A DNA stretch of 64,000 nucleotides from the NCBI GenBank assembly GCA_964651815.1, contig CAZYWG010000006.1, positions 23,259-87,258 of the forward strand. Direction: 5' to 3'. A model generated the notes under the pieces. The model made no database searches. It had not been told where the DNA came from and was given only the letters and a program-made list of their open reading frames with translations. Of the stretch, positions 658 through 14,782 are shown one piece after another. A program made the translations under genes and the position numbers. Source of the DNA: an uncultured Gammaproteobacteria bacterium. GTDB lineage: Bacteria > Patescibacteriota > Microgenomatia > Levybacterales > GWA1-39-11. How positions within the stretch are numbered: the stretch's first letter is position 1; each line of letters begins with the position of its first letter.

Positions 658-2100
658 GTGAGATTTGTAAAAAAGGCTGTTAACTTATTTTTTGTTTGCT
701 TGATTTTCTTTATCCTCCTCGGATTTTTCACAAAACAGACTACGGCGGCTGATCCATGCGCTGATCCAAATATTCCATGCGCAGGCACCCAAACTTCTAA
801 TAATTCTGCTCCGGACACATCAAGCGATACGTTTGGTCAGTCTGATGTTACGCCGGATTTTACAACTAATCCTGACGGGAAAAATATATCAGATGGAACT
901 CAACAAGTAAAAGTCACATTCAATAATCTTACAGGGAAAGAAAATGCTATATGCACAGGTAATAACTCATGTTTTGTAGGACTAGGTTCTAGAGATAACT
1001 CCGGAACCGTTGGTTTTCCTACGCTTTTTTTTAATGATGATGAACTAATTACAGATTTTCAAGGCATCAAGGTTCAGGACCTCGGCATCACTCTACCAAT
1101 TTGCGGAAATGATAATGAGGTCCAAATTTGTAAAGATCCCGGTAATCATTATTTTATAGGTGGCCAAATGTATACTTTTAGCATTGGGATTAAAAAAGAC
1201 AATTTATATTACCCCCAAAAATTTGCATTCTTTTATGTTCCGCGCTCTTTCCCCACACCGCATATTGACCCTACTGACGATTTGACGGTAAAAAGTACAA
1301 TTAAAGTAACACTTGACCCTCCAAAAGATGATCATGGTAATAGCGCAATAAGAGGCGGTGGTGGGACAGGCGTTTGGCTCCGTAATAATTACAAAATAAG
1401 CATGATTGGGGGAGGAGCAATTAGCAAAGGTGGATGCGTTGGATGGTTTAACAAAGGTGACACCAACACAATCGGCGTAACATTTAGCAATCTGACTAGG
1501 GGTAGATATACACTTTCTATAAGTGAACAAACAAGCGATTCAGACAGTAATCCTTGGAAGAAAAAAGACAAAGACAGTAGTATAGTACAAGCACAGGACG
1601 ATCCCAACAATCACGATTGTGAAGGTGGCTTTCCTTATTGGCGTGCAGTATGTGAAGTAACGCCAGACCATCCGGGCGGCAAATGCAGTAAGCCGGTGAG
1701 AGACCCAAGCGGACAAGAATATAAAGATTTTCTAAATGACCTTGACGCACTCAACAGTATTGCACCCGGAATGAAATACCCTTGTGGAGGTGGTAAAAAC
1801 ACCGTAAACAACTCATGTCCGTCAGTTGATACTGCAATTGGGACAATTCAAGTAACACCTCAGGGGTTTATCACTGACATTTTCACATTTGTCTTAACAA
1901 TTGCAGGATTTGGTTCAATGATAATCATAATTTACGCTGGTTACACATTTATGGTATCACGAGGTGATAAAGAAAAAATTGCAGGAGCGCGCGAGACTCT
2001 TACGTCTGCAATTGTTGGATTGTTGTTTATAATATTATCAATTGTTATACTTGAAATTATTGGGGTAGATATTTTGAGAATCCCCGGAATCGGACGATAA
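658..2100 (+). CDS. Secreted Cys-rich extracellular domain fused to a C-terminal TrbC/VirB2-like pilin hairpin (adhesin-pilin fusion)
   Basis: GTG start. Signal peptide MRFVKKAVNLFFVCLIFFILLGFF..TTA/ADP. About 400 aa of Cys/Gly/Asn/Thr-rich region. C-terminus is two hydrophobic helices flanking SRGDKEKIAGARETLTSAIVGLLFI, the same motif as the five other pilin-like ORFs. A ttgact-18-tatcat promoter abuts the start. Confidence 0.55.
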   Translation: MRFVKKAVNLFFVCLIFFILLGFFTKQTTAADPCADPNIPCAGTQTSNNSAPDTSSDTFGQSDVTPDFTTNPDGKNISDGTQQVKVTFNNLTGKENAICTGNNSCFVGLGSRDNSGTVGFPTLFFNDDELITDFQGIKVQDLGITLPICGNDNEVQICKDPGNHYFIGGQMYTFSIGIKKDNLYYPQKFAFFYVPRSFPTPHIDPTDDLTVKSTIKVTLDPPKDDHGNSAIRGGGGTGVWLRNNYKISMIGGGAISKGGCVGWFNKGDTNTIGVTFSNLTRGRYTLSISEQTSDSDSNPWKKKDKDSSIVQAQDDPNNHDCEGGFPYWRAVCEVTPDHPGGKCSKPVRDPSGQEYKDFLNDLDALNSIAPGMKYPCGGGKNTVNNSCPSVDTAIGTIQVTPQGFITDIFTFVLTIAGFGSMIIIIYAGYTFMVSRGDKEKIAGARETLTSAIVGLLFIILSIVILEIIGVDILRIPGIGR

Positions 2101-2437: not shown

Positions 2438-3916
2438 TTATTTTTTGTAAATTACCGCAGTTTTATCTTCAAAGATCTTCGCCCAATGGTCATATTCTAG
2501 TCGGCTTATAAATCTCGCTTTATAGTGGTTTGAATTTTGCAATAAAGATATATCAACTCCAAATACATCAATGCTAAGTGGTTTTGAATTTTTGTTTTGC
2601 CACAAAACATAATGGACATTATATTTTTTAAAAAATTTTTCGTAGCTGGCCGCGCCGCTTACTATACTCGCATAATCTTTGAATGCTGAATCGCTTTCTG
2701 AAGCGCTCGCGCGCCACTGCCAGGAAGGCATCCTTCCATCAATAAATACACGTTTTTCAGGGAGCTTCCACAATAAATATCCTCCCCAATTATAAACTGA
2801 AAAAATTTCTCCATTTATATTTTGCTTTTTTAAAAATGAAACAGCACTTTTTGGATAATATTTTTTTTCGGAAAGATCTGAATGTAAACCAATAGAATAT
2901 GTTTTACTCAAAAAAACGGCAAGTGCGTATAGCACAAAGATTAAAACGGCTTTTGAAAAACGCGCGAGCATGGCTTCATTTTTTTTAACTTCTTCCCGGA
3001 AAAATTCAAAAAAAGGCGGAACAATTATTAGTGTCGCAACTATAAAATACGGTAAGTGCCTAACGCTTGATATAACAAGTAAAAGAAGTGCCAGATAAAT
3101 AACGAGTGCTTGAAGCTTCAACTTTTTCCTATATCTAAAAATTAGAACAAAAGACAAGGCTAAAAGTATAAAAAAGGAAAGGTCAAAAAAGAAAACCCCC
3201 GGGAGCCATTCAATTATTTCCCACCTTAATGCTGAATCTGTAATTGATGAAAGTACTTCTCCCCAGAGTCGCGCGCCGTATGGATTTATAAATGTGGCAA
3301 GAATTGATCCCCCCAAAACTAAAAAATCATATCGGTCTACTCTTTTTTGGATAATTCTCAAAACAATAAATATTGATAGTAGATAGATTGCTACCGCAAA
3401 ACTTCCATGAAGATTGGCCCAAATTAAAATTAATACTGGAATTGTAATTTTCCATTTCTTCCACAGTTTTTCATTCAACAAAACTGTAAGCAAGACAGCG
3501 GCCAAAAACCAGGAAATAACCTGTATTCTTAATCCTGAAAATGAAAGAAGAATTGATGCAGCCAGAAGAAAAAATGAGGCATAATACACTTTAAATTGTT
3601 TTTTAAGTGAAAATGCAATTGCACCTATTGGGAAAGCCGCAAAGAAGAAAGAAAGAAGAAGCGGATGTATTTTGTAAAGAAAGTATATTACTACATCCGC
3701 AAGCCACTCATGATCTATGGCCGGAAAAGAAAGCATAGTATAGGAAAAAGTGTCTTTATATTGAAAACCGTGTTTTAAAGTGAGTTCTCCGAGTTTTAAG
3801 TGCCATCCAAAATCAGGATCTAGTGCAATTGTGTTGTGGATAAAAAAAACTATAAAAGAAGCAAAAACTAAACCCAAAAAAATTACTAAAGCTATCCTCC
3901 TACTATTCAAATTCAT
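2438..3916 (-). CDS. Polytopic membrane protein (about 10-12 TM) with a roughly 130-aa C-terminal soluble domain. GT-C glycosyltransferase-like architecture; function uncertain.
   Basis: Hydropathy pattern of the translation. N-terminal loop DPDFGWHLKLGE. Soluble C-terminal domain VYNWGGYLLWKLPEKRVFIDGRMPSWQW. Embedded among the pilin genes. Confidence 0.45.
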   Translation of the reverse strand: MNLNSRRIALVIFLGLVFASFIVFFIHNTIALDPDFGWHLKLGELTLKHGFQYKDTFSYTMLSFPAIDHEWLADVVIYFLYKIHPLLLSFFFAAFPIGAIAFSLKKQFKVYYASFFLLAASILLSFSGLRIQVISWFLAAVLLTVLLNEKLWKKWKITIPVLILIWANLHGSFAVAIYLLSIFIVLRIIQKRVDRYDFLVLGGSILATFINPYGARLWGEVLSSITDSALRWEIIEWLPGVFFFDLSFFILLALSFVLIFRYRKKLKLQALVIYLALLLLVISSVRHLPYFIVATLIIVPPFFEFFREEVKKNEAMLARFSKAVLIFVLYALAVFLSKTYSIGLHSDLSEKKYYPKSAVSFLKKQNINGEIFSVYNWGGYLLWKLPEKRVFIDGRMPSWQWRASASESDSAFKDYASIVSGAASYEKFFKKYNVHYVLWQNKNSKPLSIDVFGVDISLLQNSNHYKARFISRLEYDHWAKIFEDKTAVIYKK

Positions 3917-4017
3917 ATGAGCTTTATTCTACAAAAATTGTTTATGCTTTGTCTTGGTGTATTTTGCAAACTCGGAAGCACTTGACAAACTATTTCAAAC
4001 GTGCTGTAATTAAAAAT

Positions 4018-4431
4018 GTGAAAAGAATTTCAAAGTATTTAGTTCTCCTTCTCCCCCTCTTGGGTTTTATAAATGTTCCTATAGTATCAGCTAATGTTTT
4101 GTTCTCAGGTGTTAATACTGGAAGAATAAGCAATAGAATTATAAGTCCAGATCAAAGCATTGGGTCAATCGTTTCATTCGCTGTTGCATTTATTGTAGTC
4201 CTCTCGTTTCTTCTTGCACTTATTTTTATTGTTATCGGAGCAGTCCAATGGATAACATCAGGTGGTGACAAACAAAAAGTGGCGGACGCACGAAACCATA
4301 TAATTTCTGCAATTATTGGACTTATAATTGTCGCGCTCTCTTTTGTCATTGTTAACATTGTTATAACGGCGCTTGGCCTTGGATCTCTCACAAACCTCAC
4401 TATCCCAACTCTTTCGGAATTTGGCCAATAA
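4018..4431 (+). CDS. TrbC/VirB2-like pilin family protein. The GTG start at 4018 is preferred over the ORF-track start at 3949.
   Basis: Signal peptide VKRISKYLVLLLPLLGFINVPIVSA, then two TM helices around SGGDKQKVADARNHIISAIIGLII. C-terminal tail ...TLSEFGQ. TTGACA(3983)-17-TGTAAT(4006) lies just upstream of the GTG, so the longer 3949 start would sit upstream of the promoter. Confidence 0.5.
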   Translation: MKRISKYLVLLLPLLGFINVPIVSANVLFSGVNTGRISNRIISPDQSIGSIVSFAVAFIVVLSFLLALIFIVIGAVQWITSGGDKQKVADARNHIISAIIGLIIVALSFVIVNIVITALGLGSLTNLTIPTLSEFGQ

Positions 4432-4474: not shown

Positions 4475-4798
4475 ATGAATGATTTTATTCCAACCTCTGA
4501 TTGGTCAAGCTGTTTGAGCAATGGGGACGTTGCCACTCTATCTTGTATTCCTATAGTTCTTCAAAATATTATTAATTTTCTTGTTCTTTTTGCAGGTATT
4601 GCGTGTGTTTTTATAATAATTTTTGCAGGTTTTAAATTCGTAACGTCAGAAGGAGACCCTGAAAAAGTTGCACTTGCAAGAAAAACCGCGATGTATGGAA
4701 TTGGAGGATTTTTATTGGTACTTGCGTCTTTTGTTCTTGTAACAATGATTTCTAAGTTTACGGGAGTCACCCAAATCGCACCAAAAAACATCCCTTAA
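4475..4798 (+). CDS. TrbC/VirB2-like pilin family protein
   Basis: Two TM helices around SEGDPEKVALARKTAMYGIGGFLLV. No classical cleavable signal peptide. A -10-like taaaat sits about 9 nt upstream of the ATG. Confidence 0.5.
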   Translation: MNDFIPTSDWSSCLSNGDVATLSCIPIVLQNIINFLVLFAGIACVFIIIFAGFKFVTSEGDPEKVALARKTAMYGIGGFLLVLASFVLVTMISKFTGVTQIAPKNIP

Positions 4799-5499
4799 TT
4801 TATCCTCCTGAGTAAAAACTTGGCTATTATAAAAATTACAGTATTCACGGCAACTGGAATTAAAAAAAGCAAAACTACTAGTTTTAATGCTCCAAGAATT
4901 CGATGATCAAAAATAACATGCGATATAGGAGTAATTAAGTCAACTTTTAGAAATTGCGCCATGAGTATTGCAATAAATGCTAAAAACGCAACTAACAAAA
5001 CTAAAAAGACGCTCCCCTCCATATCTTTTTTACTTGAAAACATTGTGTTGGTGATAAAAAAAACAATATAGATAACGCCGCCTGTTTTTAAAACATCAAA
5101 AAATGATGAAAAAATAATATCCGGGTGCAAAAAATTAAGGTAATAAAACAAAACACTAAAAATTATAATCATTCCTACCACGACAGGAGCCGCTCCAATT
5201 AAAAAACTCCTCACTATATCTGTTTTCCTTATCTCAACGCTCCCCATCCGAAAGTTGCCATGCTCTATTTTTGGTGAGATCTCCAAACCATAGGTTTTGA
5301 CAAATAAAGCTTCCGCAACAAGCATATGTGCAAGCTCATGAAGTACTACTCCGGGAAGGAATAAAATAAAAATGGGGATTGCTGCTCTATCACTCTTTTT
5401 GAAAAGTCTATATGAGAAAATAAAAAGCGCAGAAAAAATAAATTTTGAAGTTAAAAAAAGTATTAAGAACTCTGCCGCAAAAAGCGCCCAAAATATCAT
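4795..5499 (-). CDS. Integral membrane zinc metalloprotease-like protein (HExxH)
   Basis: Multi-TM protein with HELAHMLVAE (HExxH) at the end of an early TM segment. Last gene of the minus-strand operon with 5855..8956. Converges on the pilin genes with a 4-nt overlap. Confidence 0.45.
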   Translation of the reverse strand: MIFWALFAAEFLILFLTSKFIFSALFIFSYRLFKKSDRAAIPIFILFLPGVVLHELAHMLVAEALFVKTYGLEISPKIEHGNFRMGSVEIRKTDIVRSFLIGAAPVVVGMIIIFSVLFYYLNFLHPDIIFSSFFDVLKTGGVIYIVFFITNTMFSSKKDMEGSVFLVLLVAFLAFIAILMAQFLKVDLITPISHVIFDHRILGALKLVVLLFLIPVAVNTVIFIIAKFLLRRIN

Positions 5500-5847
5500 T
5501 TAGTTATCAGCCTTAATTATCTCAGCAAGCTTATCCCGGGTAATATCTAGATCCATTGCTTGAATCTCCTCGGCTGTTACATGATCCATTTCAGACATAG
5601 TTAAATCTCTAATTCTATTGTAAAAATTTTTATCCAGTTTTTCGCGATTTTCCATTGCTTCTTCAAAAGCGATAGCCATATTTTTTTCAAGTTTAATTCC
5701 AAATATTATTTTGTATGCTGCCCAAAGCATTCTCCCTATGTTAAATTTACTGTCCTCGCTGAGATTGTCGTATGAATCGATCAAATCTTTTTTAAATTCT
5801 TCATCAAGTGGCAAAATCTTAACTATGTCTTTTGTTGTTCTTATCAT
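5500..5847 (-). CDS. Hypothetical protein (115 aa)
   Basis: ORF tightly packed between 5855..8956 and 4795..5499. No recognisable motif. Confidence 0.4.
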   Translation of the reverse strand: MIRTTKDIVKILPLDEEFKKDLIDSYDNLSEDSKFNIGRMLWAAYKIIFGIKLEKNMAIAFEEAMENREKLDKNFYNRIRDLTMSEMDHVTAEEIQAMDLDITRDKLAEIIKADN

Positions 5848-5854
5848 ATATTTA

Positions 5855-8800
5855 TTATAGCGCTTCTCCTTCGTCTTTAAATCTATCTATAACTGCTAAT
5901 AAAGCATTTTCCATTTCAGTTACCTTTACATCTCCTGTATCCATTTGATCTTTGAGAATATCTAAAAATGTTTCAAAATTCGGTGTTATGAGTGGGCTAA
6001 AGGGTGTTCCGAATAAAGGTTCATTCATGATCTCCATAAGCCTATCTGGCGTAATAATGGAGCTTACTTTTTTGAAATATTCTTCTCGATCATTTCTATC
6101 CTTATATTTAAGCATTACATCAAGAAATTCATAGTATCCTCTCGGAGGTTTTTCCGGCGGATCCCTAAAGGTAACATCGCGTTCCGAAGGAGTGTAAGTT
6201 GTATAATCCGGATCCGTAGGATTAATTTTTGTATTTTTTGTAAATTCGTCCTTTTTTTCAAAAATCTCGTATCTTCTATCCATTATTCTGTCGAAGTTCT
6301 TTAAAAGATCGCTAGTTACTTCGATTTGCTTTATCTCACCACTCAAATCTACCTTGCCAATTTCATCCTCTTGTATCTTTATCTTACCGTCAAATTCTTT
6401 TTCTAATCTCTCTCCGGCTTGCGCCCTTGAATCAAACTTGATCATTGCAAACTTTACCGCATCATTAATTTCAGAATCTGAAGGAACGGGAGGCGGTGGA
6501 GTCCCAAGCACTGGCGCGCGCTTATCAAGCATTGCCTTAATCTCCGCAAAAGACATAGTTCTAAGCTCTTCGTCAGTTAAAGCCCAAGTTGGCTCATCGG
6601 TTAATTTTTTGAAATTACTTTCTAGATCTGCTTTTCTTGGAGTAGAACTTTCAATCCTCCGCCCTCTTGCCTCAATCATGGCATTAATTACCTTGTTGCG
6701 GATATCATCTTTATCGTTCTGTTCTTTTTTCCAACCCGCCGGAAGAACATTAACTAGATCCATTATTTGATCTATATCATTTGTTCTAAGCTGTGCGTCT
6801 GATAATCCAATTGCCCGTAGTTCTCTGTATGCCTTGGTGTAGCCTTCGGTGGTTGTCTTTATTTCTGTGAATCTTGAACCTTCCTCTTTGAGGTTGACTC
6901 TTTGCTCATCAATTTTATCAAGTACCTCTTGAAGTCTGTTTTTCTCTGTTAAGACTTTGTTTACATCTTCCTGAATTTTAGCAGCTTTTCGGGCGACCTC
7001 GCTGTCAATATTTTCTCTTGCTAATCGAAGTCTTTCACTAAAATGTTCCGCTTCTTCATCAGTTCGCTTTATAACACGACCTGCGATTTCCTCGTACTGT
7101 TCTTCTTGCCATGTTTCTAACTCTAAGTTTCGTTGTTTAGTAGATTTGATTCTATCCCCATTTATAATTACCTCTGTGCCAATTCCATTTATTACGTCGT
7201 CTAATCCTGACATTGCCCCTTCAATACTCGTAAACCGACCGGCAAAATTTCTTACGACCTCTTTTGTAGCTCTGGTACGTATTTCCTCTATCGCTTTTCT
7301 CCCCTTATTGTATTCTTCGATTGTTGTCTTCCCAGCATCTATAGACCCTCTATCTCTTTTATATAGATCTCTATTTGTTTCAAAGTCTTTAACTCTTGCT
7401 TTATAAACAGTCGCTTCTTCTCCCTTACTCTTATCTCTTGCTTTTATTTTCTCTTCCCATCTTGATGCTCCCGGCAAAGATGTTTTCTTCTGCTCAATAA
7501 TATACTTTTTAAGCTGGTCCATTGCCACGTCTAATCTCGCTTTTTCAAATCTCTCTCTGTTGCCATGGTAATCAAGCGTTGCTAGACCTGTTAGAAAAGC
7601 GGGATTGTTAATCCATGAATTGGTGGCATCATCAAACACTTTACGCGTCCGCCCTAATGTGTCTCGTATTCCGTCTTCGTCTGCATTAAATTTTTCGGCT
7701 ATTTCTTCCATGTATCTAACTGCTGTTTTTTCCGGATAGCCTTTCCTCCCATCAGAATTGTAAAGAAATCCGATTGCAAGAGCATCTGCTCCGGCCCTAT
7801 CCGCGTGAATATCCTTCATGAATTCCATCCTTGCCTTAATTCTTGCGTCAATATCGTGTCTAAGTTGTTTTTGATTAGCTTCACTCGCACCGGGCGAAGG
7901 ATTAAGAACGTTAATTCCCGACATTAGTCTTACGTATTTAATGCGATCTGGGCTTGATTTAATATATTCAAGTGCTTTTTTTGATTCATGTGAATCAGGT
8001 TTTTTATAATCTCTTGAAACACCTTTTCCAACTGCAAGTGCAATTGCCTCAGCTGCTGTCGGAGCAAAACCTAACGTCGCGGCAGCTAAAGCAGGCGCCA
8101 TACCAAGAGTTGCAACTCCTAATCCTCCTGCTAACGCTGCTCCTGCTCCGACAAGTAGTACTCCTGTCTGAAGTCTATTTTGGTCATTAAATCTTGATAG
8201 ATATGGATAAGGTATGCTTAATGGACCAATTTTCTTTGAACCTATTGCCGGAACAATAGGAACATTGGGCAATCTGATTGATCCTAATATTGCTACCTCA
8301 CCTTTTCTACCATCATAAGAAGCAGTAGGTTCAGAAAGAAATTCCTGGGCTTTTCTAGCTGGATATCCAAGAGGTCCTTCTCTCATTCCAAGTGGCGTTT
8401 GATCTCTCGGCTCTGTGCCGATATCTTCAGTTGGCCCAGGATTAGTTTCCGGTATTAACCCTAGTGCAGACGAATCAACTTCCGTCTGACGCCCCATCAT
8501 AATGTCAGTAATCACGTAACCCCTAGGACTGTTTAGAAACTCGTCAACACTTTTCTCAAGGTCATTTATATCTGCGTCCTCAAATTCAACCTTAAGGGCA
8601 CCAGTATCTGTTTTTCCGGCAAGTATCCCGTAAACTTCACGGTCTAAATCATCCATTAATTCAGGGGCGTCTTTTTTTACTTTTGACAAGCGGTCCTTAA
8701 TGTGGTCTGTCATGAAGCGTCTATATTTATCCCGAGTGTCCCGGCTGAGATCCGTCCAAGGGTTCCGTTCTTTTCTTTGCCCACCACTTCTATCTCTCAT

Positions 8801-8956
8801 CTCTTCCCCAGTTCCTCGCTCACTTACAAAAGAAGATATACGAAATTGAGTATCGTCTCGATTGAGCTCTCGTTTTGAAAGCTTGGTATTTTTATTGGAA
8901 GTTTTTGATTCACCTTCACCTGCTGTCTTTTCTAACGCGGCATCCGATACAGACAT
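5855..8956 (-). CDS. Large (1033 aa) charged, coiled-coil-rich protein with a central Gly/Ala-rich hydrophobic hairpin. No recognisable family.
   Basis: Long uninterrupted ORF. Residues about 264-311 read TGVLLVGAGAALAGGLGVATLGMAPALAAATLGFAPTAAEAIALAVGKG (nt about 8024..8167), flanked by highly charged K/E/R/D-rich sequence with heptad-like stretches. No P-loop. Confidence 0.6.
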   Translation of the reverse strand: MSVSDAALEKTAGEGESKTSNKNTKLSKRELNRDDTQFRISSFVSERGTGEEMRDRSGGQRKERNPWTDLSRDTRDKYRRFMTDHIKDRLSKVKKDAPELMDDLDREVYGILAGKTDTGALKVEFEDADINDLEKSVDEFLNSPRGYVITDIMMGRQTEVDSSALGLIPETNPGPTEDIGTEPRDQTPLGMREGPLGYPARKAQEFLSEPTASYDGRKGEVAILGSIRLPNVPIVPAIGSKKIGPLSIPYPYLSRFNDQNRLQTGVLLVGAGAALAGGLGVATLGMAPALAAATLGFAPTAAEAIALAVGKGVSRDYKKPDSHESKKALEYIKSSPDRIKYVRLMSGINVLNPSPGASEANQKQLRHDIDARIKARMEFMKDIHADRAGADALAIGFLYNSDGRKGYPEKTAVRYMEEIAEKFNADEDGIRDTLGRTRKVFDDATNSWINNPAFLTGLATLDYHGNRERFEKARLDVAMDQLKKYIIEQKKTSLPGASRWEEKIKARDKSKGEEATVYKARVKDFETNRDLYKRDRGSIDAGKTTIEEYNKGRKAIEEIRTRATKEVVRNFAGRFTSIEGAMSGLDDVINGIGTEVIINGDRIKSTKQRNLELETWQEEQYEEIAGRVIKRTDEEAEHFSERLRLARENIDSEVARKAAKIQEDVNKVLTEKNRLQEVLDKIDEQRVNLKEEGSRFTEIKTTTEGYTKAYRELRAIGLSDAQLRTNDIDQIMDLVNVLPAGWKKEQNDKDDIRNKVINAMIEARGRRIESSTPRKADLESNFKKLTDEPTWALTDEELRTMSFAEIKAMLDKRAPVLGTPPPPVPSDSEINDAVKFAMIKFDSRAQAGERLEKEFDGKIKIQEDEIGKVDLSGEIKQIEVTSDLLKNFDRIMDRRYEIFEKKDEFTKNTKINPTDPDYTTYTPSERDVTFRDPPEKPPRGYYEFLDVMLKYKDRNDREEYFKKVSSIITPDRLMEIMNEPLFGTPFSPLITPNFETFLDILKDQMDTGDVKVTEMENALLAVIDRFKDEGEAL

Positions 8957-8971
8957 ATACTTAATTATTAC

Positions 8972-9000
8972 TTGAAAGCGCTTGCTATTTCAACTATGAT
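8972..9000. promoter_or_regulatory. Compact bidirectional sigma70-like promoter pair for the divergent 5855..8956 and 9007..10353 genes
   Basis: Plus strand: TTGAAA(8972-8977)-17nt-TATGAT(8995-9000), with ATG at 9007. Minus strand: TTGAAA (complement of 8989-8994)-17nt-TAATAA, with ATG at 8956. The two -35 boxes form an inverted repeat. Confidence 0.4.
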
Positions 9001-9006
9001 AAAGAT

Positions 9007-10353
9007 ATGGTTGGAGAAGGACCGCAGCCTAGTGTTGCAGAAACAGGCGCAATCGCTACTGCTGATCGACCAAATAACGCACCCGCCGCTGGGCCTACCG
9101 TTCAGATTGAAAATCCAAGCAGCTCTCCCACAAACCCTTATTTAGATGGTGAAGAAGCAGAAGTAAAAGGAGCACCAAAGCCAAATGTCGCAAGTGAGGA
9201 AGAAGATCAGGAACCTGCAATAGAATCAGGCCCATCAAGAAGAATTCAAACAAAAGAGCTTCATGAGCTTGCAGACACCAATATAAATATCGCGGGTAAA
9301 CAAATTAAGGACAAAATAAACAAAGCGCCAACGAAAAAAGAGGGCGTGGCTTCCTTATCCACAGCAGAAAAAGAACTTTATTCGTTGTTTACAATAAGAG
9401 GTTGGAAGGAAAGTGACGGAGATTTGGAATTTGTAAGAGAAGATAGCAAAGGACATAAATCCGGCACGCCGCTTAATATTGAAGGAGTTGGACTAATTAC
9501 TAAATTCAGAGTACTAGAAGGAGGTAAATTAAAAGTTCATATTAGTGGATCAGACAGTGAAGTAGAGGTTGATCGCGCTCGGGTAGAAGAAGCACAACTT
9601 CTCTCTCATAAAAATGACATTTTGAATAATTTTTCGGGGAGCAGAAGAGAAATTGAAGAAATTGAGATTAATTCGATTGAACATCCCGGAGCGGATATTT
9701 TTGGTGGTAAGACTAATGCAGACATAAATAGTCTCATTGAATCCGCCGCAGACGAAGCTTCTTACCCGACAACAGGCGATATCAGAACCTATGTTAGTGG
9801 GATGCCAGATAGCCCGCAGAAACAAGAATTACTCACCATGCTTTCTGGAAGTAATCTTCCATCATCAGAAATTATTGATAAGGTTTATGTTGGCGCAAAT
9901 ACTGATAAAGCACTTGTTGATCTGCGTGCAGATGTTAAGAGATTACAGGAAACAGTAAATAATAACAAAGGAAATAAAGAAGCAATAAGAAGTCTTGATG
10001 TTGCTCAGAGATATTTGAAGTTATATACGGATGCTGAAGCAAAATTACAATCGGGAGGTTCACAAGAAATAATTAACAAAATTTCTGCCGGACAAATTGA
10101 TATTGAAAAATCCAAGGCAATAAAAAATGCACTTAGGACAGGACGTATGGATGCCCTTATTCCTCTTCTCGCTAAGGATCTGCAGGATGACCCAGATAAT
10201 GATTCACCTGAAGTGCTTGCTGACAAAGCGGAAAAGAGACGCGAGCTAAAGAAAAAAATGGAGACAATGAGTTGGTTTGCGCTTGCTGCCTTGCTTTTAT
10301 CCGGTATGGCTGTTGGAAAACTTGGTGAAGGCGTTGTTGGCGGCGGTAGATAA
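9007..10353 (+). CDS. Acidic hypothetical protein (448 aa) with a single C-terminal TM anchor (tail-anchored)
   Basis: Ala/Pro/Glu-rich N-terminus. Ends in MSWFALAALLLSGMAVGKLGEGVVGGGR. First gene of the plus-strand operon that leads into VirB4. Confidence 0.5.
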   Translation: MVGEGPQPSVAETGAIATADRPNNAPAAGPTVQIENPSSSPTNPYLDGEEAEVKGAPKPNVASEEEDQEPAIESGPSRRIQTKELHELADTNINIAGKQIKDKINKAPTKKEGVASLSTAEKELYSLFTIRGWKESDGDLEFVREDSKGHKSGTPLNIEGVGLITKFRVLEGGKLKVHISGSDSEVEVDRARVEEAQLLSHKNDILNNFSGSRREIEEIEINSIEHPGADIFGGKTNADINSLIESAADEASYPTTGDIRTYVSGMPDSPQKQELLTMLSGSNLPSSEIIDKVYVGANTDKALVDLRADVKRLQETVNNNKGNKEAIRSLDVAQRYLKLYTDAEAKLQSGGSQEIINKISAGQIDIEKSKAIKNALRTGRMDALIPLLAKDLQDDPDNDSPEVLADKAEKRRELKKKMETMSWFALAALLLSGMAVGKLGEGVVGGGR

Positions 10354-10511: not shown

Positions 10512-11738
10512 ATGGAAAATCATCCTATACCACAAGACGTTACAGGCTTTAAATTTAAGCTGATTGGTAGCATGACTGTCAAACAGTTTTTATATCTATT
10601 AGGGTTTGGTATTTTGAGTATGATCTTTCTTATTTTCCACATGAATTTATTTATAAAAGTCCCTATCATGACCGTACTTGGGTGCATTGGAATATTTCTT
10701 GCATTTATTCCAATTGAAGGGCGTCCAGCGGACATTATGATAATGAATTTTGCAAAAGCAATTCCTTCTGAAAACAGGTACATTTTTAAAAAACGCGGCG
10801 TCAATTTGGCGAACTATGAAGCTTTCAAAATAATTGTCAAAAAGCCAGTTCCAGCGTCAGCAGCACCTGGGACGCAACCGTCTACACCAAAAAGTGTTTC
10901 TGATGATAAACGGGCAATTTTGATTTCGCGTCTTCGCAACTCTTCTTTCAGGCCTGATGATTCGGAAATTAAACAACTTAACAACATTAAAGCTATTTTT
11001 GATACAGATAGTAGTGCTACCCCACAAACGCAAATTTTTGTAAGTGAGCAAAAAAATAAACCAATGGTAGCAATACACGCCGACGAACCAAAAGTTGAAA
11101 TAACCAATGCTGTCTCCGCAGCGGCGCCAATTATACTTTCCTCTCCCGTGCCACAGGTAGCTGTGCATGAAATTAAGCCGCCCGAAGAAAAAAAAGCTGA
11201 TATGCCGGCAGAAAATCCGTCACTCCAAGCGGCAAAACCCGCTGCAAGCGAACAACCAGCGCAGCAAGAAGCGCCAAGACAAGAAATTCCACAGCCTCAA
11301 ATTAAACTTTCTGACAATGAAGAAAAAACACACTCTACCCCTCCCCCCGTGGCTATTGGCCAAGTATCTGCGCCTAATCTTGCCGGAGGATTCCCCACCC
11401 TTCCCGATGTTGGAAATGTAGTTCTTGGAATGGTTCGTGACGCTCGCGGCCGTACACTACCAAACATTTTGGTTGAGGTGGTGGACGACAACAATATTCC
11501 AGTGCGCGCTTTTAAAACAAACGCTTTAGGACAATTTGCTTCTGCTACCCCACTACCTGATGGCGTTTACAAAATACATTTTGAAGACCCGCAGAAAAAT
11601 CAGGAATTTGAAATTGTTGACATCAACCTTAGTGGCGAAATTTTTCAACCCATAGAAGCAGTTTCGGTTGACGCCCGAGAAAAATTAAGGCGCGAGCTTT
11701 TTGGCACTCAACCCGCAGCGCCAAGCTCAGTAGTATAA
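10512..11738 (+). CDS. PrgI/VirB3-like two-TM membrane protein with a long Pro-rich linker and a C-terminal prealbumin/carboxypeptidase-regulatory-like beta-sandwich domain
   Basis: N-terminus FKFKLIGSMTVKQFLYLLGFGILSMIFLIF...VPIMTVLGCIGIFLAFIPIEG resembles the small VirB3/PrgI component that precedes VirB4 genes. C-terminus GNVVLGMVRDARGRTLPNILVEVVDDNNIPVRAFKTNALGQFASATPLPDGVYKIHFE resembles CarboxypepD_reg-like folds. Confidence 0.45.
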   Translation: MENHPIPQDVTGFKFKLIGSMTVKQFLYLLGFGILSMIFLIFHMNLFIKVPIMTVLGCIGIFLAFIPIEGRPADIMIMNFAKAIPSENRYIFKKRGVNLANYEAFKIIVKKPVPASAAPGTQPSTPKSVSDDKRAILISRLRNSSFRPDDSEIKQLNNIKAIFDTDSSATPQTQIFVSEQKNKPMVAIHADEPKVEITNAVSAAAPIILSSPVPQVAVHEIKPPEEKKADMPAENPSLQAAKPAASEQPAQQEAPRQEIPQPQIKLSDNEEKTHSTPPPVAIGQVSAPNLAGGFPTLPDVGNVVLGMVRDARGRTLPNILVEVVDDNNIPVRAFKTNALGQFASATPLPDGVYKIHFEDPQKNQEFEIVDINLSGEIFQPIEAVSVDAREKLRRELFGTQPAAPSSVV

Positions 11739-11746
11739 AATAAATT

Positions 11747-12388
11747 ATGGCAAAAAAAGTTCATTCAACAACTCAAGACTTTACAGAAATAGTTGACATA
11801 TCAGACGACGTTGTTTTTTTTAGGGGAGGGAGCGCATGTATGATAGCCGAGGCGTCTTCAGTTAATTTTTTCCTTCTTTCAACTGATGAACAAAACGCAA
11901 GAATCTACGGATACATGGCTCTCCTAAATTCTTTGTCGTCATATCTCCAGATATTAATTGTTTCACGTCGTGTTGACCTTGGAAATTACTTAAAAATCAT
12001 TGACGAAAAAATTTCAAATGTTAAAAACCCTAAGATTTCAGAACAACTTGTTCTCTACCGCGATTTTATAAAAGATCTAATTAAGGGCGAAGGATTGCTT
12101 GATAAAAAAATCTATATTGTGGTCCCTTTTTCCCAACTTGAACTCGGTCCGTCATCTATGCCACAGCAAACAACGCAACAAGCAAGTAAACCCCTCTCTC
12201 TAAATGAGAGGATTAAATCCGGATTAATATCTAAAAGAAATAATGTCATAACTCAGGTTGAACGCATGGGGCTTACCGCAAAGCCACTTGGGACAAACGA
12301 ACTAATCAAGCTTTTTTACGAATTGTTTAACCAGGAATTTGTGACTCTGGACTTCAATTCAAGTGATATTAAGAATGTGATTATATAA
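11747..12388 (+). CDS. VirB4 N-terminal-like module encoded as a separate ORF (213 aa)
   Basis: DISDDVVFFRGGSACMIAEASSVNFFLLSTDEQNARIYGYMALLNSLSSYLQILIVSRRVDLGNYL resembles the first conserved region of TraC/VirB4-family N-termini. Same reading frame as the downstream ATPase ORF, separated from it by TAA/TAA/TAG stops. Confidence 0.4.
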   Translation: MAKKVHSTTQDFTEIVDISDDVVFFRGGSACMIAEASSVNFFLLSTDEQNARIYGYMALLNSLSSYLQILIVSRRVDLGNYLKIIDEKISNVKNPKISEQLVLYRDFIKDLIKGEGLLDKKIYIVVPFSQLELGPSSMPQQTTQQASKPLSLNERIKSGLISKRNNVITQVERMGLTAKPLGTNELIKLFYELFNQEFVTLDFNSSDIKNVII

Positions 12389-12403: not shown

Positions 12404-12480
12404 TTCGAAACCCGAAACAAGTTTTAAAAATTAAAAAATTAGAATTTGTTTCGAATTTCGATATTCGAATTTCGAATTTT
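12404..12480. repeat. Imperfect inverted repeat plus tandem tcgaattt units between the two VirB4 ORFs
   Basis: ttcgaaacccgaaacaa (12404-12420) pairs with ttgtttcgaatttcgat (12446-12462) at 14 of 17 positions, around a 25-nt A/T loop. Followed by tcgaattt at 12451, 12465 and 12473. Confidence 0.5.
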
Positions 12481-12481
12481 T

Positions 12482-14782
12482 ATGTTGGGCTTTGGGAAAA
12501 AAACAAAACAAATTCAAAATGAAGCACCTCAACAGGTATTGAGTGCCGCGGGCGAACCTACTGTGGCGCCACAAGTCCAACCAACAATTGTTGTAAAGGC
12601 CGGGACAAAAGGCAAAAAAGCAGCTGGACAAAGCTCGCATCCGCAAAACGTGCAAAGTAAAGGGTATGCTGCTCTTTCTCAAGGGGCTGTTTCTGTAGTT
12701 GACATTATTTCCCCGTCGTCAGTTGAAGTTGATTTTAAAAATATTCGCGTTGGAAATAAATTTTTCAGGACTTTTTTTGTTGTTGATTATCCACGGCAAG
12801 TATCTCCCAACTGGCTTTCAATACTCATCGACTACAAAGAGACTATGAACATTTCAATGTTCTCATACCCCGTTGAGAGCAAAGACGTATTAACAAATTT
12901 AAGAAGAAAAATTTCTGAGATGGAAGCAACGCTTCAATCAGACGCTGAGCAAGGACTTGAACCGGACCCTAAGACTAGCGCCGGGCTGGAAGATGCAATC
13001 GCTTTGCGAGAAGAACTGGCACGTGGGCTTGAGCGATTTTTCCAATTCGGTTTATATATCACTTTGGCCGCTGAAACTGTTGAAGAACTTGACTCAAAAA
13101 CCAAAGAGCTAACTTCTCTTCTTGCGTCAAACCTTTTACTTATTAAACCCGCAACTCTCCAAATGGAAGACGGATTCAAAACTACGTTGCCAGGCGGCGT
13201 TGACAAACTTTTTATAACTCGCAACATGGATACAACTTCTCTTGCTTCAACTTTTCCTTTCACGTCTTATGAAATATCACACCCTAATGGAATCCTGTAT
13301 GGAGTCAACACAATAAATAATTCACTTGCGATTGTGGACCGTTTTTCTTTTGAAAATGCAAATGAGGTAGTCTTTGGAAAGTCAGGTGCCGGAAAATCTT
13401 TCCTGGTAAAACTTGAAATACTTCGCCAAATGATGTTTGACGCGGAGATTTTGATTATCGACCCAGAAGATGAATATAGAGCTCTTTGCCACGCGCTTGA
13501 CGGCGAATACATTAATTTTTCAAAGGACTCTGACATTAAAATTAACCCATTTGCGCTAATTTCTGAAGACATGACAGACGCGCAACTTGGAATAAAAATC
13601 TTATCACTTCACGGGCTTCTCAAAACCATGCTTGGGGAGATGACGCCAACTCAAGAAGCAATTCTCGATAGGTCTCTTGTATTATGTTATAAGCAAAAAG
13701 GGATAACTCCGGACCCCGCAACTTACAGACAAGAACCACCAATTCTTGAAGATCTTTACAAAACTCTTCTTAACATGGAAGAACCCGAAGCAAAAGATCT
13801 TTCATTCAGGCTCGAAAAATATGTGAAAGGTGGTTTCTCAGGTCTTTTTAATCAACAAACAAATTATGATGTTAAAAACCAACTAACTGTTTTTTCAATA
13901 AAACAACTTGAAGACGCGCTCCGTCCAATTGCTATGCATGTAATTTTGGATTTTATCTGGAACCGCGTCAGGACAAAGCTTAAAAAAAGAATACTGGTAG
14001 TTGATGAGGCGTGGTATCTAATGCAACACCCTGATTCTGCAAGTTTTTTGCAAGGAATTGCCAAACGGGCAAGAAAATATTTCCTTGGAGTAACTACTCT
14101 TACTCAAGATATTGAAGACTTTCTCAATAACGATTATGGAAAATCCATTTTATCTAATTCCTCAGTTCAAATTCTTTTAAAACAGAATTCTTCAGAAGTT
14201 GAAACCCTGGCAAAAGCGCTATTTTTATCGGAAGGAGAAAAACAATTTCTAGTGACGGCACAAGTTGGAGAAGGGCTTTTGTTTGCCGGGCAAAATCACA
14301 TAACCGCTCAGTTTGTGGCATCAAATTCAGAATATGAACTAATTACTTCAAAGCCACAAGATATATTAAGAAATGAACAGGACGCGGAAAATATTCAGGC
14401 GGCACAATTGGCTTCCGCGCAAGCTAATCCGCCTCAACCCACAGAACAAACACAAGCGCCGCCACCTCCACCAGAACAACCAATGCAACCTCAACAGCCT
14501 ACGGCAATACCAGTGGTACCTACCCAAAGCGTGCCGACACAAGATCCTGAAAACATCACAGTTGTTCCACAGCAAATCCAGACACCAGTACAACCTGCTG
14601 TAACACAGCAACCAATCACACAAATACCTACAGTGAGTGTACCCCAGCCAGGTACCATCCCGGCAGCACCAATTGCTTCTTTCAATCAAGCTCTCCCTAC
14701 AGCGCCCCCTGTAGCGCCACAACCCCCGATTGTTCCTACGGAAAACGTTCAGCCCCCTACAAATCCCACTGGGAGCGCATAA
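12482..14782 (+). CDS. virB4: VirB4/TrbE/CagE-family type IV secretion ATPase (ATG at 12482 preferred; ORF-track TTG at 12446)
   Basis: N-terminal region IISPSSVEVDFKNIRVGNKFFRTFFVVDYPRQVSPNWLSILIDY..MNISMFSYP. Walker A FGKSGAGKSF (nt 13375-13398). Walker B ILVVDEAWYLMQ. About 140-aa Pro/Gln-rich C-terminal extension. Confidence 0.8.
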   Translation: MLGFGKKTKQIQNEAPQQVLSAAGEPTVAPQVQPTIVVKAGTKGKKAAGQSSHPQNVQSKGYAALSQGAVSVVDIISPSSVEVDFKNIRVGNKFFRTFFVVDYPRQVSPNWLSILIDYKETMNISMFSYPVESKDVLTNLRRKISEMEATLQSDAEQGLEPDPKTSAGLEDAIALREELARGLERFFQFGLYITLAAETVEELDSKTKELTSLLASNLLLIKPATLQMEDGFKTTLPGGVDKLFITRNMDTTSLASTFPFTSYEISHPNGILYGVNTINNSLAIVDRFSFENANEVVFGKSGAGKSFLVKLEILRQMMFDAEILIIDPEDEYRALCHALDGEYINFSKDSDIKINPFALISEDMTDAQLGIKILSLHGLLKTMLGEMTPTQEAILDRSLVLCYKQKGITPDPATYRQEPPILEDLYKTLLNMEEPEAKDLSFRLEKYVKGGFSGLFNQQTNYDVKNQLTVFSIKQLEDALRPIAMHVILDFIWNRVRTKLKKRILVVDEAWYLMQHPDSASFLQGIAKRARKYFLGVTTLTQDIEDFLNNDYGKSILSNSSVQILLKQNSSEVETLAKALFLSEGEKQFLVTAQVGEGLLFAGQNHITAQFVASNSEYELITSKPQDILRNEQDAENIQAAQLASAQANPPQPTEQTQAPPPPPEQPMQPQQPTAIPVVPTQSVPTQDPENITVVPQQIQTPVQPAVTQQPITQIPTVSVPQPGTIPAAPIASFNQALPTAPPVAPQPPIVPTENVQPPTNPTGSA

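Follow-up and report, generated by a model that had tools for sequence, protein, structure and literature searches.

The window (the whole 64,000-nucleotide stretch of DNA that was analysed) carries a T4SS cluster, which lies next to dnaA/dnaN and comprises a VirB2-like pilin array, PrgI/VirB3, TrsD, VirB4 and a downstream hydrolase-type gene; there is no T4CP gene in this cluster. PrgI, TrsD, VirB4 and the pilins are detected by Pfam/NCBIfam. The cluster surrounds the genes of three further proteins, here called BIG, SM and TA (Table 1). The two large open reading frames among them, BIG and TA, which had been described in a first-pass annotation, are real, with the charge, helicity, Gly/Ala stretch and C-terminal hydrophobic tail that had been ascribed to them.

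Table 1. Genes and sequence features of the locus (positions in the window)
Feature	Position	Strand	Description
234-aa HExxH protein	4795..5499	-	polytopic membrane protein, abuts SM
SM	5500..5847	-	115-aa, mostly acidic helical protein
BIG	5855..8956	-	1033-aa all-alpha protein, ORF; member of an unannotated family of ~1000-aa proteins
Most conserved block of BIG	6002..6214	-	residues about 915-985
Gly/Ala-rich segment of BIG	8027..8173	-	uncharged, residues 262-310, basic flank ahead
Divergent control region	8957..9006	.	50 bp, two overlapping back-to-back sigma-70-like promoters
TA	9007..10353	+	448-aa acidic protein, ORF, transcribed divergently from BIG
C-terminal hydrophobic tail of TA	10267..10326	+	residues 421-440, Lys/Arg-rich flank ahead

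The promoters of the control region have the form TTGAAA-17/18-TATGAT or AATAAT, and their -10 boxes end 6-7 nt before each ATG, which suggests that the divergent mRNAs are leaderless or near-leaderless. Over the whole control region the number of sigma-70-like sites is not above chance. The arrangement CTTGAA...TCAAG/C plus -10 box recurs at the same place in at least seven homologous loci. Rfam gave no match in the window.

Relatives of BIG were found through a full HMMER scan, whereas word-indexed searches with BIG, TA and a BIG profile of 76 sequences found nothing beyond the query. The family has 124 cluster representatives (86 at E<=1e-10), nearly all of them 900-1100 aa long, with a mean column identity of 20%. 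BIG had been described as highly charged, helical and heptad-like, and this was borne out: D+E make up 18.2% and K+R 16.5% of its residues, the AlphaFold2 model (76-sequence alignment, pLDDT 80.9, pTM 0.60) is 60% helical overall and 72% helical over residues 320-1033, with longest helices of 56 residues, and a crude heptad a/d test gave 49 windows versus 2.2 +/- 4.3 in shuffled sequences (0/200 shuffles as high). The most conserved block has the consensus D..Y[TS]..E....GYYE.M.LLFDY...DR..YF..I...LPP..LA..LN, in which Y951 is invariant and E925, G940, Y941, F949 and P970 are kept at >=93%. A reading of this block as a catalytic-tyrosine or relaxase domain was rejected, as the block lacks a conserved His or an HUH motif, belongs to an entirely helical domain and gave no fold match.

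BIG has no match in Pfam, NCBIfam, PHROGs, PADLOC or PDB, and sequence and profile searches of PDB with BIG, TA and SM gave coiled-coil noise only. In agreement with the earlier statement that the two large proteins lack recognisable enzymatic motifs, no enzymatic domain was found in BIG or TA with Pfam or NCBIfam. Homologues of BIG are absent from the plasmid and phage collections searched (50,697 phage records). Foldseek comparison of the BIG model returned nothing significant from PDB (best E 0.07, TM 0.06) or BFVD (best E 0.03, TM 0.06).

In SMC/MukB/Rad50 proteins an antiparallel coiled coil is framed by the two halves of an ABC ATPase head (Walker A, Walker B and signature motifs), one at the N- and one at the C-terminus, and dynamin-like proteins combine a GTPase domain (G1-G4 motifs) with a membrane-inserting paddle or hairpin. 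An SMC-like or dynamin-like fold, named beforehand as a result that would speak against the original description, was not found for BIG in PDB or BFVD with Foldseek. The possibility that BIG nevertheless belongs, as a divergent sequence, to one of the known families of long helical proteins (SMC/MukB/Rad50, bacterial dynamin-like, tape-measure, colicin-type or alpha-pore-forming toxin) draws on its top Foldseek matches, MukB (7nyw_B, E 0.074, TM 0.06), colicin Ia (1cii, E 0.16), Rad50, PaxB and AhlB, and on BFVD matches to tape-measure proteins (E about 0.1). BIG does share with colicin Ia and MukB the possession of very long helices, of 40-56 residues, and these two are its best matches, but at E 0.07-0.16 and TM 0.06-0.12 they are non-significant, as are all Foldseek matches (TM 0.05-0.13, rmsd above 30 A). 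Neither an ABC head nor a colicin channel or receptor domain is present. The 143 columns of BIG conserved at >=60% contain no P-loop or other NTPase motif, and Pfam and NCBIfam give no match to the SMC group. Pfam and NCBIfam likewise show no GTPase domain of the dynamin-like/mitofusin type, the only dynamin match being 5owv_A (E 6.2, TM 0.06). The resemblance to phage tape-measure proteins suggested earlier did not hold either: there is no PHROG match, the tape-measure matches in BFVD reach at best an E of about 0.1 and stay under 0.1 in TM, none of the phage records matched, and the neighbours are T4SS and chromosomal genes, with no phage genes nearby. With PADLOC empty as well and no homologue on plasmids, we reject SMC, dynamin, tape-measure and colicin membership and regard descent of BIG from any of these families as extremely improbable.

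The Gly/Ala-rich segment of BIG had been taken for a glycine-zipper hairpin in the middle of the protein. The uncharged stretch is real, but it is located about one quarter along the sequence; a second, weaker hydrophobic window spans residues 221-239. Position and composition of the segment, though not its sequence, are conserved in most full-length relatives (median 39 residues, 36% Gly+Ala, ~3 GxxxG per 50 residues), and the GxxxG register is not conserved across the family. When the Gly/Ala regions of 10 BIG-family members were searched against the Pfam Gly-zipper models with hmmscan (E<=1) no match was obtained, which rejects membership in Gly-zipper_Omp, Gly-zipper_YMGG and their relatives, and the 'glycine zipper' is no more than a compositional resemblance. 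Glycine-zipper segments are known from pore-forming toxins such as VacA, Tse4 and TelE. BIG shares with these an uncharged stretch that is rich in Gly and Ala and in which GxxxG recurs (median 3 per 50 residues); it differs in having no Pfam match and no conserved register, and no toxin domain or immunity-like gene was recognised.

As to the membrane hairpin, the membrane-type character of the segment stood up to analysis, the hairpin less so. The flank upstream of the segment has a mean net charge of +1.3 and is positive in 70% of cases versus 32% in the background, with RR-[WY]-H conserved in it. By Hessa-scale sums, a simple, crude and position-independent calculation, the best 19-mer of the window protein scores +1.1 kcal/mol, no other member of the family being more hydrophobic (median +4.1), whereas genuine TM segments encoded by neighbouring genes lie at -1.0 to -4.8 kcal/mol. 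Since no helix is predicted by AlphaFold over residues 210-317 (pLDDT below 50) and most family members are too polar there for a TM helix, the segment could instead be a flexible linker.

TA fits its earlier description as an acidic protein with one C-terminal hydrophobic segment: its net charge is -17, and the tail is its sole hydrophobic segment and is kept in position in 11/11 homologues. Besides the tail, the protein comprises a disordered Pro/Ser-rich N-terminus, helices and a small beta region; its AlphaFold model, built from the single sequence, is of low quality (pLDDT 45), and mean column identity is 24%. Like BIG, TA gave no match in Pfam, NCBIfam, PHROGs or PADLOC. Homologues were identified by jackhmmer and by hhalign (probability 95.7-100%), and in each of the 11 contexts tested their genes point away from BIG. 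Tail-anchored proteins have one hydrophobic segment within about 30-40 residues of the C-terminus, lack an N-terminal signal and lie mostly in the cytosol; this architecture, with the basic flank before the segment, is predicted for TA and its homologues. At +3.0 kcal/mol in the window and -0.5 to +6.4 in the homologues (Hessa-scale sums) the tail is of marginal hydrophobicity, so that stable insertion is not assured. The hydrophobic segments of BIG and TA are both only marginally hydrophobic.

SM is the best conserved of the three proteins (mean column identity 46% versus 20% and 24%), and has no match in Pfam, NCBIfam, PHROGs or PADLOC. Its gene directly follows BIG in every context for which there is sequence, except L087/L088, where one gene is inserted. 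Divergent SM-like proteins follow other large proteins adjoining prgI in L029 and L041; this pairing with unrelated large proteins looks like a pattern of conserved adaptor and variable partner. The gaps between BIG and SM (7 nt) and between SM and the HExxH gene (0 nt) fit one transcription unit, as the first-pass annotation had proposed for the three genes of the window. The HExxH protein is, however, no member of the conserved module. Its family, without match in Pfam, NCBIfam, PHROGs or PADLOC, occurs in nine related loci, seven of which lack BIG, and the arrangement seen in the window was found only in L022.

The conserved unit is therefore not the BIG/TA pair plus the HExxH protease, as first supposed; TA, BIG and SM form one conserved three-gene module, TA<->BIG-SM. 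The module was defined as a BIG gene followed by an SM gene, with TA reading away from BIG on the other side of a promoter region of at most about 60 bp, and is present in the window and in L009, L022, L038, L052, L082-L089, L091, L094, L099, L101 and L103. As far as sampled, it is confined to Levybacteria/Microgenomatia-type Patescibacteria.

Of the 14 informative contexts, 10 have the module in one and the same slot, with the VirB2-like pilin array on one side and prgI-trsD-virB4 on the other; these contexts span lineages whose DnaA proteins are only 46-72% identical. In the remaining four (L085, L086, L087/88, L099) the available sequence contains no T4SS gene, and the intact trio lies among genes for EF-P, a tRNA synthetase, ribosomal protein S9 and SAM synthetase. 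Among 80 related VirB4-anchored loci the module is present in only four. About 20 VirB4-anchored loci carry a different cassette in the same slot, consisting of a small (~115 aa) and a large (~650-700 aa, C-terminal TM) protein, and L089 carries both. Homology of the trio to this alternative cassette (f13 + f27/f33/f34) was rejected (hhalign probability 15% or less). The slot is thus a hypervariable one in a chromosomal, origin-proximal, Gram-positive-type T4SS cluster. The tie of BIG and TA to the T4SS, assumed in the original description, holds for the constant slot but is loosened by the unlinked contexts and by the rarity of the module in related loci.

The suggestion that BIG and TA are structural parts of the apparatus cannot be maintained for its core, as the module is absent from 76/80 related VirB4 loci. 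BIG, TA and SM have no Pfam/NCBIfam match to VirB6/PrgH, VirB8/PrgL, VirB10 or VirD4-type T4CP, and the architectures of these core proteins (five or more TM segments in VirB6, an N-terminal TM segment with an NTF2-like domain in VirB8, Walker A/B in T4CP) were not found, BIG having one hydrophobic region, TA one tail and neither a P-loop. From its rarity in related loci and its lack of linkage to the T4SS in four contexts it follows that the module is an optional accessory or cargo cassette rather than a core structural part. Comparison of the window with L009 gave identities of 26% for BIG, 29% for TA, 51% for SM, 51% for PrgI, 61% for DnaN, 72% for DnaA, 76% for TrsD and 81% for VirB4; by this measure BIG and TA are the fastest-diverging genes of the locus.

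The linkage of the module to the T4SS could be largely inherited from one ancestor and not independently maintained. Taken further, the trio might be a membrane-associated coiled-coil system unrelated to the T4SS, serving envelope or division scaffolding or membrane remodelling, its adjacency reflecting inherited gene order near the replication origin. Such a system would account for the four contexts with an intact trio among housekeeping genes, and is consistent with the compact divergent promoter unit of its own and with the absence of any sequence or fold link to a T4SS protein. It accords poorly with the retention of the exact slot across deep divergence (DnaA 46%), with the analogous small-plus-large cassettes that otherwise occupy this slot, with the SM-like genes directly preceding prgI in L029 and L041, and with a patchy occurrence in close relatives that is unlike that of a housekeeping scaffold. 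We consider it improbable, and think it rather likely that the module works with the T4SS.

As to how it does so, we tentatively favour, well short of conviction, that BIG and TA are membrane-targeting cargo of the T4SS and SM their chaperone or adaptor, a proposal in which we infer everything beyond the synteny. BIG, and probably TA too, would be handled by the T4SS; because their hydrophobic elements are only marginally hydrophobic, both would escape insertion in the producer's own membrane. SM would keep BIG soluble and/or present it to the T4SS. Once exported, BIG and TA would insert into or coat the target membrane at the epibiont-host interface. In BIG, assembly or recognition rather than catalysis would be the task of the long helical bundles and of the C-terminal block that is conserved.

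Several observations were counted for the cargo proposal: a real, length-constrained family, the trio kept in all contexts examined together with its overlapping divergent promoter pair, the shared slot and its polymorphism, the SM-like pairing, the fast divergence of BIG and TA, the weak hydrophobicity (+1.1 to about +4 for BIG, +3.0 for TA) and the absence of an N-terminal signal-like hydrophobic segment from BIG, TA and SM in a hydropathy scan. The indications that these are T4SS substrates (no signal peptide, intermediate hydrophobicity, a small partner, a conserved C-terminal block and synteny) are indirect. It has been found experimentally that TM segments of T3SS and T4BSS substrates have a hydrophobicity just under the threshold for inner-membrane targeting and are shielded by chaperones (PMC6110835). 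Patescibacterial T4SS usually have no coupling protein or relaxase nearby and are believed to export proteins or to have some different role (PMC12102498, PMC10633639).

On the other hand, a family that holds to ~1000 aa at ~20% identity and is homologous from end to end resembles a structural component more than a typical modular effector, the basic flanks before the Gly/Ala segment and the TA tail fit positive-inside anchoring in the producer membrane, low-constraint coiled-coil proteins are also expected to diverge fast, and 4/14 contexts lack a T4SS gene in the sequence available. Export would be unnecessary if BIG and TA, attached by a re-entrant or in-plane Gly/Ala hairpin and by a tail anchor respectively, formed with SM a scaffold on the cytoplasmic face of the producer's own membrane, as an accessory T4SS platform that, for example, replaces the missing coupling-protein/receptor complex or positions the machine. 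The lack of signal peptides in the trio, the basic residues that flank both hydrophobic elements cytoplasmically, the strict length and full-length homology of BIG, its confidently modelled long helical bundles and the adjoining T4SS in 10/14 contexts would all suit such a scaffold, as would the rarity of T4CP homologues near virB4 in Patescibacteria (PMC12102498). Yet a core platform should be conserved, while 76/80 related T4SS loci do without the module and have unrelated cassettes instead; in most members stable insertion of the Sec/YidC type would call for stronger hydrophobic segments; and all machine parts diverge more slowly than BIG and TA. A scaffold that is never exported is the main rival of the cargo proposal and seems to us only slightly less probable.

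The cargo proposal has parallels in known secretion systems. Hydrophobic translocators of T3SS (SipB/IpaB/YopB), which have class II chaperones (SicA/IpgC/SycD), are large helical or coiled-coil proteins with an internal, moderately hydrophobic segment of hairpin length. BIG likewise is a large helical protein with an internal hairpin-length segment and a small partner encoded alongside it in a secretion cluster. The T3SS pairs and the trio are, however, unrelated in sequence and fold; BIG has about twice the length of a translocator, SM shows no sign of being a TPR protein, the machine is a Gram-positive-type T4SS and export of BIG is putative. Legionella TMD-effectors with IcmS/IcmW and Agrobacterium VirE2-VirE1 are T4SS examples with small (about 65-150 aa) acidic partners and C-terminal recognition elements. 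The trio resembles these in the absence of a signal peptide, the weakly hydrophobic TM segments and the small acidic partner; with T3SS translocators, too, the comparable principle is a TM hydrophobicity of secreted proteins below the inner-membrane targeting threshold (PMC6110835). The Legionella and Agrobacterium systems differ in that there is no homology, that BIG is conserved over its full length and not modular, and that they are diderm T4A/T4B systems with coupling proteins, whereas the trio would act on a host that is a bacterium or an archaeon.

The genes around the module match the description of the Patescibacterial MPF_FATA-like T4SS given in the available parts of PMC12102498 and, for Ca. 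Southlakia SEML1_0006-0019, of PMC10633639. Counterparts of BIG, TA and SM are not among the components presented there, and the trio is limited to a subset of Microgenomatia-type genomes. In the one Patescibacterium that is genetically tractable, epibiotic growth requires the T4SS, which has no recognisable relaxase or coupling protein and for which no substrate or function is known (PMC10633639, PMC12102498, PMC12857230).

A conserved unannotated cassette in the T4SS cluster is a concrete candidate for the cargo of this machine or for host contact, and combines rapid diversification with membrane-type segments of secretion-compatible hydrophobicity and a small conserved partner. In a more far-reaching version, which we think doubtful at best, BIG would be the first identifiable Patescibacterial T4SS substrate, an SM-chaperoned ~1000-aa helical translocon whose Gly/Ala hairpin would be inserted with TA in the host membrane, tethering the epibiont or opening a conduit, and whose fast diversification and cassette swapping would track host envelopes. 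Even as a producer-side scaffold, the module would add a lineage-specific element to a Gram-positive-type T4SS that is otherwise minimal. Comparative and structural studies can now draw on three newly defined protein families and on the hypervariable slot of the locus.

All open reading frames described in the first-pass annotation are present in the window, and the finding is both real and more structured than at first reading: a trio of genes occupies a variable T4SS slot. The gene of the 1033-aa protein (BIG) is followed 7 nt downstream by that of a 115-aa protein (SM), and a 448-aa protein (TA) is encoded divergently. In every related locus (L-numbers) with enough sequence an SM homologue follows BIG and a TA homologue is divergent; this arrangement was seen in the window, L009, L022, L038, L052, L082-L086, L089, L094, L099, L101 and L103. 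L091 and L092 match L009 in gene lengths and order, and in L087/L088 one additional gene separates BIG and SM. As had been proposed, TA is acidic (net charge -17) and has a single C-terminal hydrophobic segment, a tail kept in 11 of 11 TA homologues. Mean column identity is 46% for SM, the best of the three, 24% for TA and 20% for BIG. Between the window and L009, the nearest genome having the trio in common with it, identities are 81% (VirB4), 76% (TrsD), 72% (DnaA), 61% (DnaN) and 51% (PrgI), compared with 51% for SM, 29% for TA and 26% for BIG; the divergence of BIG and TA is exceptional.

The 234-aa polytopic HExxH membrane protein, previously placed in one operon with BIG and SM, adjoins SM in the window but was found next to prgI without BIG in seven of nine loci, and is therefore outside the module. 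It carries HELAH, has no match in Pfam or NCBIfam, and represents its own family, next to prgI in nine related loci.

BIG and TA are separated by only 8-63 bp, typically about 50 bp. Common to at least seven loci are two overlapping back-to-back -35/-10 pairs with the motif CTTGAA ... TCAAG/C and a -10-like box after each (window, L038, L083, L084, L085, L089 and L103). The -10 boxes are 6-8 nt from each ATG, and each -35 falls within the opposite promoter's spacer, making a fully overlapping divergent pair; the window's copy holds the central palindrome AAGCGCTT. A promoter scan alone did not rise above chance for this AT-rich region. The shared layout suggests that the BIG and TA transcripts are co-regulated and of leaderless type, and mutual interference of the overlapping promoters is possible. 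The three genes TA, BIG and SM form a conserved module with a divergent promoter in common.

The cluster surrounding BIG and TA is a Gram-positive-type T4SS (see table). The window, a chromosome segment with a low GC content (about 39%), belongs to a Patescibacterium of Levybacteria/Microgenomatia type, and the nearest VirB4-anchored loci are in Candidatus Levybacteria/Levyibacteriota MAGs. The cluster agrees with the MPF_FATA-like Patescibacterial T4SS, for which PMC12102498 describes pilin arrays, dnaA proximity and loci that often lack a coupling protein and relaxase nearby. It also agrees with the T4SS of Ca. Southlakia, which is essential (PMC10633639).

Features of the trio region and its T4SS cluster (window positions unless a locus is named)
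Feature	Position	Strand	Remarks
VirB2-like T4SS_pilin gene	658-2100		C-terminal domain only
VirB2-like T4SS_pilin genes	2102-2428, 3949-4431, 4475-4798		
492-aa polytopic protein	2438-3916	-	within pilin array, opposite strand
HExxH protein, 234 aa	4795-5499	-	stop overlaps convergent pilin gene by 4 nt
SM, 115 aa	5500-5847	-	
BIG, 1033 aa	5855-8956	-	
BIG-TA spacer	8957-9006		
TA, 448 aa	9007-10353	+	
PrgI/VirB3-like	10512-11738		408 aa
TrsD-like	11747-12388	+	213 aa
VirB4, CD1110-type	12446-14782	+	778 aa
840-aa gene	14790-17312	+	downstream of virB4
dnaN	17829-18929		adjoins trio/T4SS region
dnaA	19062-20396		adjoins trio/T4SS region
Equivalent of 840-aa gene, L103	1889-4354		Glucosaminidase domain (PF01832)
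PF05635 genes, L083	8023-8451, 13653-14057, 15525-15893		

As in other Patescibacteria, VirB4 is split into a TrsD-like N-terminal-domain protein and a separate ATPase, the final ~140 residues of which are a Pro/Gln-rich low-complexity tail. In PrgI a long linker rich in Pro, Ala and Gln is present, as is a CarboxypepD_reg-like domain at the C-terminus. The 840-aa protein, without family match, has a CarboxypepD_reg-like domain at its N-terminus, a TM segment in the centre and a domain rich in Cys and His at its C-terminus. The gene at the corresponding position in L103 (see table) suggests that the position 3' of virB4 is a VirB1-like cell-wall hydrolase slot. The 492-aa protein (9-10 predicted TM segments, no Pfam match) could be a highly diverged VirB6 analogue; such analogues are reported as scarce in Microgenomatia (PMC12102498). 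It has no detectable relation to f17, a ~500-aa polytopic family of more distant loci (hhalign probability 0.3%). In L083 three genes of the 23S rRNA intervening-sequence protein family PF05635, one of which also matches bAvd weakly, are interleaved with pilin genes and flank the trio; they could encode diversity-generating retroelement accessory proteins or unrelated four-helix-bundle proteins, and none is present in the window's cluster. Many MAGs with a Patescibacterial T4SS locus are titled 'uncultured Gammaproteobacteria' or 'Pseudomonadales'. Their VirB4 proteins, 50-84% identical to the window's, stand alongside loci titled Levybacteria/Levyibacteriota, most with prgI and trsD homologues, and the titles appear to be taxonomic mislabels.

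The earlier question whether homologues occur only beside T4SS-like loci received a mixed answer. Of 14 contexts with sufficient flanking sequence, 10 (window, L009, L022, L038, L052, L083, L084, L089, L094 and L103) have the trio in one slot, bounded by the pilin array and prgI-trsD-virB4; DnaA in these lineages has only 46-72% identity to that of the window. In L085, L086, L087/88 and L099 the neighbours of the trio are housekeeping or other genes, and the sequence available there contains no T4SS gene. BIG is present in only 4 of 80 VirB4-anchored related loci. About 20 loci (L004, L006, L012-L016, L019-L021, L025, L027, L030, L031, L033, L036, L049, L089) carry in the same slot, in either orientation, an alternative cassette of a ~115-aa protein (f13) and a larger one of ~650-700 aa that has a TM segment at its C-terminus, the latter from mutually homologous families (f27/f33/f34/f90/f93/f143; the f27/f33/f34 superfamily). 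L089 contains both cassette and trio, which have no detectable homology (hhalign probability <=15%). Immediately 5' of prgI, L029 and L041 have a diverged SM-like gene preceded by that of an unrelated large protein; still other loci have 1200-2000-aa proteins in the pilin-prgI slot. The slot is hypervariable among Levybacteria, and residence of the trio is preferential, not obligatory. We infer that the trio is probably coupled functionally to the T4SS; a scaffold independent of it, a reading favoured by the four contexts among other genes, is a possible but less likely alternative.

Word-indexed searches gave no match beyond the BIG query itself. BIG is nevertheless a family and not an orphan, because a full HMMER scan of 1.84 billion representatives recovered 124 proteins at E<=1e-3 (86 at E<=1e-10), nearly all 900-1100 aa long and sharing no more than 30% identity with the query. 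Conservation is strongest in a C-terminal block, GYYE.M.LLFDY...DR..YF...LPP..LA..LN, with Y951 invariant and E925, G940, Y941, F949 and P970 nearly so. In line with the lack of enzymatic motifs stated in the first-pass annotation, the conserved residues make up no recognisable catalytic set; a P-loop is not conserved. The annotation's description of a charged, helical protein with heptad-like stretches was also borne out: D+E is 18.2% and K+R 16.5%, a crude heptad test gave 49 windows against 2.2 ± 4.3 in shuffles, and in the AlphaFold2 model (76-sequence alignment; mean pLDDT 80.9, pTM 0.60, 586 residues at pLDDT >=90) residues 320-1033 are 72% helix, the longest helices having 56 residues. 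Searches of Pfam, NCBIfam, PHROGs, PADLOC and PDB (sequence and profile) had no match, and no homologues were found in plasmid and phage collections. Foldseek detected nothing significant in PDB (best MukB, E 0.074, TM 0.06; colicin Ia, E 0.16) or BFVD (best E 0.029; TM <0.13), hence neither of the SMC-like or dynamin-like folds that would have contradicted the earlier reading. The supposed tape-measure likeness was not substantiated (BFVD matches at E ~0.1), and membership tests placed BIG in none of the SMC, dynamin, tape-measure or colicin families. The family that BIG represents is new, all-alpha and constrained in length; its fold is modelled with confidence, and no relatives could be detected.

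Hydrophobic windows of BIG are at residues 221-239 (weak) and 262-310. The Gly/Ala-rich stretch reported earlier exists, but at ~26-30% of the length rather than mid-protein, and it is matched by no Pfam glycine-zipper model. Residues 210-317, which include it, have pLDDT <50 and no secondary structure in the AlphaFold2 model. Most full-length members have an uncharged Gly/Ala-rich segment at residues ~200-300 (median 39 residues, ~3 GxxxG per 50 residues, 36% Gly+Ala), kept in position and composition but not in sequence, with a basic upstream flank, often RR-[WY]-H. By a simple Hessa-scale sum the best 19-mer is +1.1 kcal/mol in the window protein, the lowest in the family (median +4.1, no member below 0), and the TA tail is +3.0 (family range -0.5 to +6.4), compared with -4.7, -4.8 and -1.0 kcal/mol for true TM segments of neighbouring genes. 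A hydropathy scan of BIG, TA and SM found no N-terminal hydrophobic segment. In experiments, TM segments of T3SS/T4BSS substrates had hydrophobicity just under the need for inner-membrane targeting and were shielded by chaperones (PMC6110835). The marginal values fit an exported, conditionally inserting protein; the Gly/Ala segment may instead be a flexible Gly-rich linker or a weak in-plane anchor. Within a coupling to the T4SS, BIG and TA might tentatively be regarded as membrane-targeting cargo or translocon and SM as chaperone or adaptor. That the trio is instead a producer-side membrane scaffold is only slightly less probable.

The functional reading of the trio is put forward as a hypothesis. 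In this uncultivated lineage the trio is a concrete, testable candidate for the role of the Patescibacterial T4SS, which specialists regard as an open problem.
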